Of a DNA stretch of 416 nucleotides, positions 1 to 416 are shown piece by piece (position 1 is the first letter of the stretch; each line of letters opens with the position of its first letter). Below the pieces are notes generated by a model. It was not told where the DNA came from. It saw only the letters and a list, made by a program, of their open reading frames with translations, and made no database searches. The stretch comes from Escherichia coli (lineage in GTDB: Bacteria > Pseudomonadota > Gammaproteobacteria > Enterobacterales > Enterobacteriaceae). The translations under genes were made by a program, and so were the position numbers. The stretch lies in the NCBI RefSeq assembly GCF_003334815.1, contig NZ_QOWO01000130.1. One strand, 5' to 3'.

Positions 1-416
1 GAAACCGGCTTTGACGGCCGCACACAGCGTTATCACCACGACCTGACCGGCAAACTTATCCGCAGCGAGGATGAGGGTCTGGTCACCCACTGGCACTATG
101 ACGAAGCAGACCGCCTCACGCACCGCACCGTGAAGGGTGAAACCGCAGAGCGGTGGCAGTATGACGAACGTGGCTGGCTGACAGACATCAGCCATATCAG
201 CGAAGGGCACCGGGTGGCGGTGCATTACAGGTATGATGAGAAAGGCCGGCTGACCGGTGAGCGTCAGACGGTGCATCACCCGCAGACGGAAGCACTGCTC
301 TGGCAGCATGAGACCAGACATGCGTACAACGCGCAGGGGCTGGCGAACCGCTGTATACCGGACAGCCTGCCCGCCGTGGAATGGCTGACCTACGGCAGCG
401 GTTACCTGGCAGGCAT
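1..416 (+). CDS. rhs: Rhs-family YD-repeat protein, internal fragment of the conserved core (partial at both ends)
   Basis: Frame +1 is open across all 138 codons. Frames +2 and +3 hit stops early (TGA at 41-43; TGA at 12-14), and two of the three reverse frames contain stops. The translation has repeated YD-type motifs at a spacing of about 21-31 residues: RYHHDLTGKLI (nt 28-60), WHYDEADRLT (91-120), WQYDERGWLT (154-183), YRYDEKGRLT (226-255), and degenerate HAYNAQGL (319-342) and LTYGSGYL (385-408). From memory the peptide closely resembles the E. coli-type Rhs core (rhsA/B/C-like), but the paralog cannot be assigned from this core-only fragment, so the symbol is given at family level. There is no Met codon in frame, consistent with an internal fragment. 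Confidence 0.93.

Follow-up and report, generated by a model that had tools for sequence, protein, structure and literature searches.

How much can the base composition of a short stretch of Escherichia coli DNA say about the gene to which it belongs and about the history of that gene? The stretch considered here (416 nt at its full length, hereafter called the window) had been read in an original prediction as part of the GC-rich core of an E. coli-type Rhs element from an enterobacterial host, and its composition had been taken as evidence of horizontal origin and mosaic assembly. The combination of a GC-rich core with an AT-rich tip in E. coli Rhs elements has been textbook knowledge since the 1990s, the gene itself having been described in the 1980s and 1990s, and the GC-rich core pattern was reportedly described by Hill's group. 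The observation of a GC-rich Rhs core in the window is thus real, correctly interpreted and already known, and the question that the locus raises is what such a composition says about where the core came from.

A segment of the rhsA/rhsB core

Direct counting of the 416 nt gave 134 G, 122 C, 100 A and 60 T, i.e. a GC content of 61.54%, and the earlier hand count of 256 G or C bases (about 61.5%) was exact. GC content was fairly even over the window, ranging from 0.59 to 0.65 in windows of 100 nt. Frame +1 was open over the whole window, with a translation that starts ETGFDGRTQRYHHDLTGKLIRSEDEGLVTHWHYDEADRLTHRTVKGETAERWQYDERGW and contains many YD motifs, and GC in this frame was 67.6%, 44.6% and 72.5% at the first, second and third codon positions, respectively (GC1, GC2 and GC3). 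The remaining five frames of the window contained no ORF longer than 43 aa. The following features were found:

Positions 1-416, plus strand: internal segment of an rhs core ORF (identity to rhsA/rhsB; match to NF041261)
Positions 40-138, plus strand: RHS/YD repeat unit, residues 14-46 (PF05593 RHS_repeat, E = 3.9e-05; TIGR01643 at residues 13-50)
Positions 91-168, plus strand: two 15-nt direct repeats of 93% identity, at 91-105 (TGGCACTATGACGAA) and 154-168 (TGGCAGTATGACGAA), from a repeat search
Positions 160-264, plus strand: RHS/YD repeat unit, residues 54-88 (PF05593 RHS_repeat, E = 3.9e-04)

The window translation aligned to positions 675-812 of the NCBIfam model NF041261 (RHS_core) with E = 6.6e-84 and 282.6 bits, where the cutoff of 2000 bits on a model of 1261 positions is out of reach for a fragment of 138 aa; full-length K-12 RhsA passes this equivalog cutoff with 2647.1 bits over model positions 1-1261. 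The TIGR01643 model (YD_repeat_2x) scored 20.1 bits on the window against a cutoff of 15.8. The two 15-nt repeats encode W-H/Q-Y-D-E, which is the YD motif of successive repeats, at a spacing of 63 nt (21 codons), and the repeat search of the window detected only such codon-level repeats of the YD motif together with weak inverted matches (74%). An Rfam scan of the window returned only sR32, which was rejected as a sub-threshold chance match (16.3 bits, with the gathering score at 40). The coding strand of the window also strongly prefers A over T (100 vs 60), with an AT skew of +0.17 to +0.40; a positive AT skew of about +0.2 runs along the cores of all relatives described below and is absent from their flanks, and this skew of Rhs cores probably reflects the codon repertoire of the YD repeats.

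The window was identical at every nucleotide, and in frame, to codons 667-805 of rhsA of E. coli K-12 (MG1655 record NZ_CP032667.1). In the 40-kb K-12 rhsA locus (L001) the match lies at 20001-20416, within the CDS at 18003-22136. The equivalent part of rhsB in this genome was also 100% identical over the 416 bases, and because rhsA and rhsB are the same over the window, the paralogue of origin is not assignable. Accordingly, K-12 RhsA (WP_000015300.1) and RhsB (WP_000015298.1) share with the window its reading frame and YD repeats, with zero differences, and both have a GC-rich core and an AT-rich tip. Megablast against 5,426 complete E. coli genomes found the window in 3,882 of them, at one to seven copies per genome (median 3), and no match in the other 1,544 (28%). 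Since 803 records among these complete genomes were at least 99% identical to the window, it is not assignable to K-12 over other strains. Together with the NF041261 match, the identity to K-12 rhsA and rhsB bears out both the proposed E. coli-type Rhs core and the assumed enterobacterial host, which is E. coli. The RhsA-B-C-F subfamily, to which K-12 RhsA and RhsB belong, corresponds to clade I of Jackson et al. (2009; PMC2935791).

Within the first 1200 residues of RhsA, Pfam detected 12 RHS repeats at E <= 0.001, and TIGR03696 (Rhs_assc_core) covered residues 1170-1247. The core ends with the motif PxxxxDPxGL (PVTNTDPLGL at RhsA 1238-1247, PISDIDPLGL in RhsB), after which the variable tips of RhsA and RhsB are unrelated. 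Sequence relatives of RhsA with solved shells included Tse5 (8cp6, E = 6.9e-128, RhsA 286-916), 7q97 and Tse15, and the Tse5 alignment takes in the window. The T6SS Rhs toxins Tse5 of P. aeruginosa (8cp6), Photorhabdus laumondii Rhs1/Tre23 (7pq5) and Tse15, and the S. bongori core (8qjd), have a homologous YD-repeat shell; like RhsA, these toxins combine a shell, an Rhs-associated core and a variable toxin, with aspartyl autocleavage (PMC8636562), although those with solved shells are far from RhsA in sequence. Rhs YD repeats form a beta-barrel cage around the C-terminal toxin, and aspartyl autocleavage at the two ends of the shell sets this toxin free (PMC8636562). By homology, the window is predicted to encode part of the shell wall: the beta-strands of its YD repeats would form a piece of the wall of a hollow shell around the variable C-terminal toxin, and the toxin would be released by autoproteolysis at the PxxxxDPxGL core end. 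The Tc toxin proteins TcB/TcC (Yersinia entomophaga YenC2, 4igl) and the YD shells of teneurins belong to the same cocoon fold family and share the Rhs-associated core region; they matched RhsA 1149-1248 only, i.e. the C-terminal core region, and the repeats of the window were unmatched in that search. Pfam found no PAAR family in RhsA 1-1200 and placed DUF6531 at residues 46-123; the N-terminus (...PAARQGD...) resembles the prePAAR signature of PMC8636562 by eye only. No vgrG or hcp annotation was present within 20 kb of the K-12 rhsA locus. To our knowledge, K-12 has no T6SS.

GC profile of the rhs loci in K-12 and other genera

A profile of GC and GC3 along the full K-12 rhsA locus revealed the abrupt drop at the core/tip junction that had been predicted. 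The rhsA core (codons 1-1247, 3,741 nt) had a GC content of 61.6% and a GC3 of 72.1%, compared to 40.2% and 28% for the tip of 130 codons and a GC content of 52.5% for the chromosome flanking rhsA. The steepest fall in the gene occurred at codon 1229, where GC went from 60% to 43% between adjacent 150-nt windows; the PxxxxDPxGL motif ends 18 codons later, at codon 1247. The C-terminal extensions and immunity genes of such elements had likewise been described as AT-rich, and the genes 3' of rhsA were at 32-34% GC: yibA, which lies 20 nt from rhsA and carries no annotation beyond HEAT repeat protein (33.7%), yibG (32.3%) and, farther downstream than yibA, an Imm57-family pseudogene (33.5%). The step was repeated in rhsB, with 61.7% GC in the core and 36.6% in the tip. 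The K-12 loci hence fit the definition of an E. coli Rhs element sensu Hill: in a host of about 51% GC, some 3.7 kb of GC-rich core (about 60% or more) precede an AT-rich extension, and the ORFs farther downstream are AT-rich as well.

The rhsA locus has another GC peak farther 3' (59-61%, L001 22951-23400); it falls on an orphan pseudogene annotated as 'RHS repeat-associated core domain' (23029-23985), which is followed by the AT-rich yibG, and a second orphan core fragment (L001 24492-24710) precedes a frameshifted immunity gene of the Imm57 family. Displaced tips and immunity genes form an array in the region from 22951 to 25603 of L001; according to Jackson et al. (PMC2935791), clade I loci are generally without such arrays. 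The clade II rhs locus of Serratia marcescens Db11 (SMA1610), with 67.7% G+C in the core and 46.4% in the tip, likewise shows orphan core fragments and a trough of low GC on its downstream side (PMC2935791). As in the Db11 locus, GC peaks at the orphan core fragments of the K-12 rhsA locus are followed by AT-rich genes, whereas the two loci differ in Rhs clade, in host GC and in their absolute values, which are higher in Serratia.

We also scanned one genome per species, an approach that needs exact matches of 8-residue peptides and is hence insensitive, and the real relatives that it returned came from Enterobacteriaceae only. Amino-acid identity was 89% in E. albertii, 74% in Superficieibacter, 73% in Buttiauxella brennerae and 70% in Phytobacter ursingii, and Atlantibacter hermannii contributed a fragment. 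These loci had a core plateau of about 60-63% GC between flanks of about 52-56%, with a trough of 30-45% where the downstream sequence continues. In the codons orthologous to the window (segments of 414 nt), the composition was as follows; Atlantibacter was left out of codon-level comparisons, because its segment had aligned to another repeat unit and was out of register.

E. albertii: GC 58.0%, GC3 64.5%
Superficieibacter: GC 66.4%, GC3 83.3%
Buttiauxella: GC 63.0%, GC3 76.8%
Phytobacter: GC 59.9%, GC3 72.3%

The Superficieibacter core (L007 9233-11387) is broken up into a pair of overlapping ORFs, 421 and 305 aa long, and the GC plateau in Atlantibacter (L012 8501-11000) is only about 2.5 kb long; both look like decayed or orphan cores that have kept their high GC. 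The representative of E. coli itself was missing among the matches of this genome scan, although 72% of the complete genomes carry the window sequence, and the representative strain is likely to be among the 28% without the RhsA-B-C-F subfamily.

The same scan also brought up apparent matches in high-GC or unrelated taxa, namely Frankia, Streptomyces and a metagenome-assembled genome (MAG) of Oscillospiraceae. The Frankia tisae contig (NZ_JANEZT010000833.1, L013 1-433) is 433 nt long, has a coverage of 0.80 and is 100% identical to K-12 rhsA; the contigs from Streptomyces griseoloalbus (BMUD01000166.1, L011 1-544; 544 nt) and from the MAG (JAETOQ010000140.1, L006 1-2726; 2,726 nt) are each about 98% identical to E. 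coli rhsA. On the basis of these short lengths and near-identities the three matches were rejected, and the contigs almost certainly represent contamination or misbinning. A multi-copy repeat of atypical GC content tends to assemble as such short orphan contigs.

Two simple accounts of the composition can be judged at this point, namely that the window is a chance local GC fluctuation in an ordinary E. coli gene, or that a host genome of about 60% GC makes its composition unremarkable. The background consisted of 150.5 kb of K-12 chromosome that lies outside the Rhs elements (51.8% GC), drawn from L002, L014 and the flanks of L001 and of L005, the rhsB locus; its 416-nt windows had a mean of 51.8%, an SD of 5.6% and a maximum of 63.5%, and 0.7% of them reached 61.5%. 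A lone window of this composition is a roughly top-1% value, unusual and not extreme, and to this extent a fluctuation could produce it. The signal is stronger at the scale of the whole core: the highest background stretch of 3,741 nt had 58.6% GC, compared to 61.6% for the core (z of about 3.1), and the excess spans all 3,741 nt, ends abruptly at the core/tip junction and recurs as a plateau in rhsB and in five other species. The locus-scale profile refutes a chance fluctuation, to which we give practically no probability. A high-GC host, the circumstance that would have made the composition unremarkable and for which the matches in Frankia, Streptomyces and Oscillospiraceae might seem to speak, can be given hardly any credence either: the three contigs, of 433-2,726 nt and 98-100% identical to E. 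coli rhsA, are contaminants or misbinned, and the window is 100% identical to a K-12 chromosome that, as sampled, has a GC content of 51.8%.

Sources and persistence of the GC excess

Atypical codon usage of Rhs cores underlies the classical view of their foreign origin. The GC-rich composition might also be a by-product of the protein, with YD shells needing the GC-rich codons of Arg, Gly, Pro, Ala and Asp, and would then be silent on origin. The 28 intact genes flanking rhsA had a mean GC of 53.0%, with GC1, GC2 and GC3 of 60.5%, 40.7% and 57.6%, respectively, and the highest GC3 among them was 66.1%. When the amino acids of the core were recoded with the codon frequencies of these flanking genes, amino-acid composition alone raised GC from 53.0% to 56.8%, compared to the 61.6% observed in the core. 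Amino-acid composition thus accounts for about 45% of the excess and synonymous codon choice for about 55%. In line with the former, Arg (9.8% vs 5.1%), Gly, Thr, Tyr and Asp are over-represented in the core, Lys, Ile, Phe, Met and Asn are under-represented, and GC1 of the window (67.6%) exceeds that of the flanking genes (60.5%). However, the protein covers only this smaller part of the excess, the largest shift lies at third positions (a GC3 of 72% in the core, above both the mean and the maximum of the flanking genes), and codons that are rare in E. coli are enriched: CGG makes up 29.5% of Arg codons in the core and 10.4% in the flanking genes, AGG 6.6% and 0.6%, and ATA 11.9% and 4.5% of Ile codons, while the share of GTG among Val codons is 72% vs 41%. 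The synonymous part of the excess resides in G/C-ending codons that are seldom preferred in E. coli genes, such as CGG, AGG, GTG and GGG. The decomposition contradicts the by-product account in part, and as a full explanation we regard it as distinctly improbable.

The age of the bias is addressed by the relatives. Because the same GC profile is found in other enterobacterial genera, the bias is no mark of a recent arrival in E. coli; it is an old property common to the clade. Jackson et al. (2009; PMC2935791), who describe the G+C-rich core and the A+T-rich extension, found clade I to be older than E. coli and the core and tips to be evolutionarily decoupled. From data not shown, they also report that composition and codon usage of rhs genes differ between genomes within a clade and are alike within a genome (PMC2935791), which implies substantial amelioration and counts against an inherited state.

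To distinguish decay from maintenance, we built a 1.57-kb alignment of the core region surrounding the window, with sequences of K-12, E. albertii, Buttiauxella and Phytobacter, and polarised the differences between K-12 and E. albertii where both outgroups agree. On the E. albertii branch there were 26 GC-to-AT and 8 AT-to-GC changes (p = 0.003), and on the K-12 branch 15 and 8, which was not significant (p = 0.21); the counts are small (23 and 34 polarised strong/weak changes on the K-12 and E. albertii branches), the outgroups are distant, and orthology among Rhs cores is uncertain given that cores move and recombine. The implied equilibrium GC was 34-47%, compared to the observed 59-61%. 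Polarised changes in the window by itself pointed in the same AT-ward direction (15:2 and 3:1). The AT-ward bias is probably conservative, as parsimony errors in GC-rich sequence would inflate the AT-to-GC counts.

These counts bear on the proposal that the GC3 excess of about 15 points over enterobacterial hosts is not a foreign relic and is actively maintained whatever the host, either by GC-biased gene conversion among multi-copy, recombining cores or by selection on the DNA. Several observations speak for it: E. coli genomes carry a median of 3 and up to 7 core copies, five other taxa retain the excess although their proteins have diverged by 11-27%, and the Serratia core likewise exceeds its host (67.7%; PMC2935791). 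Furthermore, the rhsA and rhsB cores (L001 18003-21743 vs L005 minus-strand 9946-14181) are 98.9% identical, differing at 42 of 3,741 positions, and a single one of these differences lies in the interior of about 3 kb between core nt 81 and 3106; the others crowd at the two core ends, chiefly in the 300 nt that precede the tip. Such a pattern reflects either concerted evolution or recent duplication, and it fits an interior that evolves in concert and recombination junctions that lie close to the end of the core. The copies are a hot spot of rearrangement by recombination according to Lin, Capage and Hill (1984), as cited in PMC2935791. Near-identity of the rhsA and rhsB interiors keeps gene conversion alive as an explanation; in the selective variant, another possibility, the core would be kept GC-rich while the AT-rich tip and immunity cassettes fall into an H-NS-prone compositional class. 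All compared hosts are at about 50-56% GC, so that a comparison of hosts does not separate an inherited, decaying excess from one that is intrinsically maintained. Against maintenance stand the excess of GC-to-AT over AT-to-GC changes on both branches (26:8 and 15:8) and an implied equilibrium well under the observed GC. As far as the aligned sequences can tell, the substitution pattern speaks more for an inherited high GC content that is slowly being lost than for upkeep by biased gene conversion, and active maintenance appears unlikely, though it keeps some weight.

We therefore consider it highly probable that the window is a conserved stretch of Rhs core (codons 667-805) from the YD shell and that the GC content of the core as a whole was inherited from a GC-richer ancestor within the enterobacterial clade. 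The GC excess would most likely be a legacy of this ancestral state of the enterobacterial Rhs clade, decaying only slowly toward host composition, and the AT-rich tip and immunity modules would have had a separate history and have become attached to the core through recombination at its end.

Horizontal origin and the range of Rhs cores

A GC-rich donor was not found, either by tblastn against 72,556 plasmids or in the insensitive scan of genome contigs for exact 8-residue matches. In the plasmid search, close relatives occurred only in Escherichia and Klebsiella, and those elsewhere, in Burkholderia, Cupriavidus and Paraburkholderia, had at most 36% identity. Rhs cores were present on the plasmid-labelled records CP099174.1, CP061270.1, CP088628.1 and NZ_CP069916.1. 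Two plasmid-labelled E. coli records with Rhs cores, of 1.2-1.3 Mb, look like pieces of chromosome; amino-acid identity to the window is 83% for the core on a 10-kb E. coli plasmid and 78% for that on a Klebsiella oxytoca plasmid of 19 kb, the latter being annotated as rhsD. If these small plasmid records are real, they would be vehicles that move Rhs cores between genera.

A horizontal origin may reasonably be proposed from the atypical codon usage, the patchy presence (28% of complete genomes being without a copy) and the mosaic structure of the element. The original prediction is supported, with qualifications to its part on horizontal origin. Composition alone overstates foreign origin because about 45% of the excess is due to the amino-acid composition of the YD repeats, so that nearly half of what seemed foreign belongs to the protein.

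The earlier recognition of an Rhs core from 416 bases and the base count were both right. The presence of orphan rhs contigs as contaminants in unrelated assemblies is a caveat for any taxonomic range of Rhs elements that is drawn from database matches. Finally, the GC bias is common to several enterobacterial genera and apparently decaying, and as such it should not be read as a recent acquisition by E. coli.
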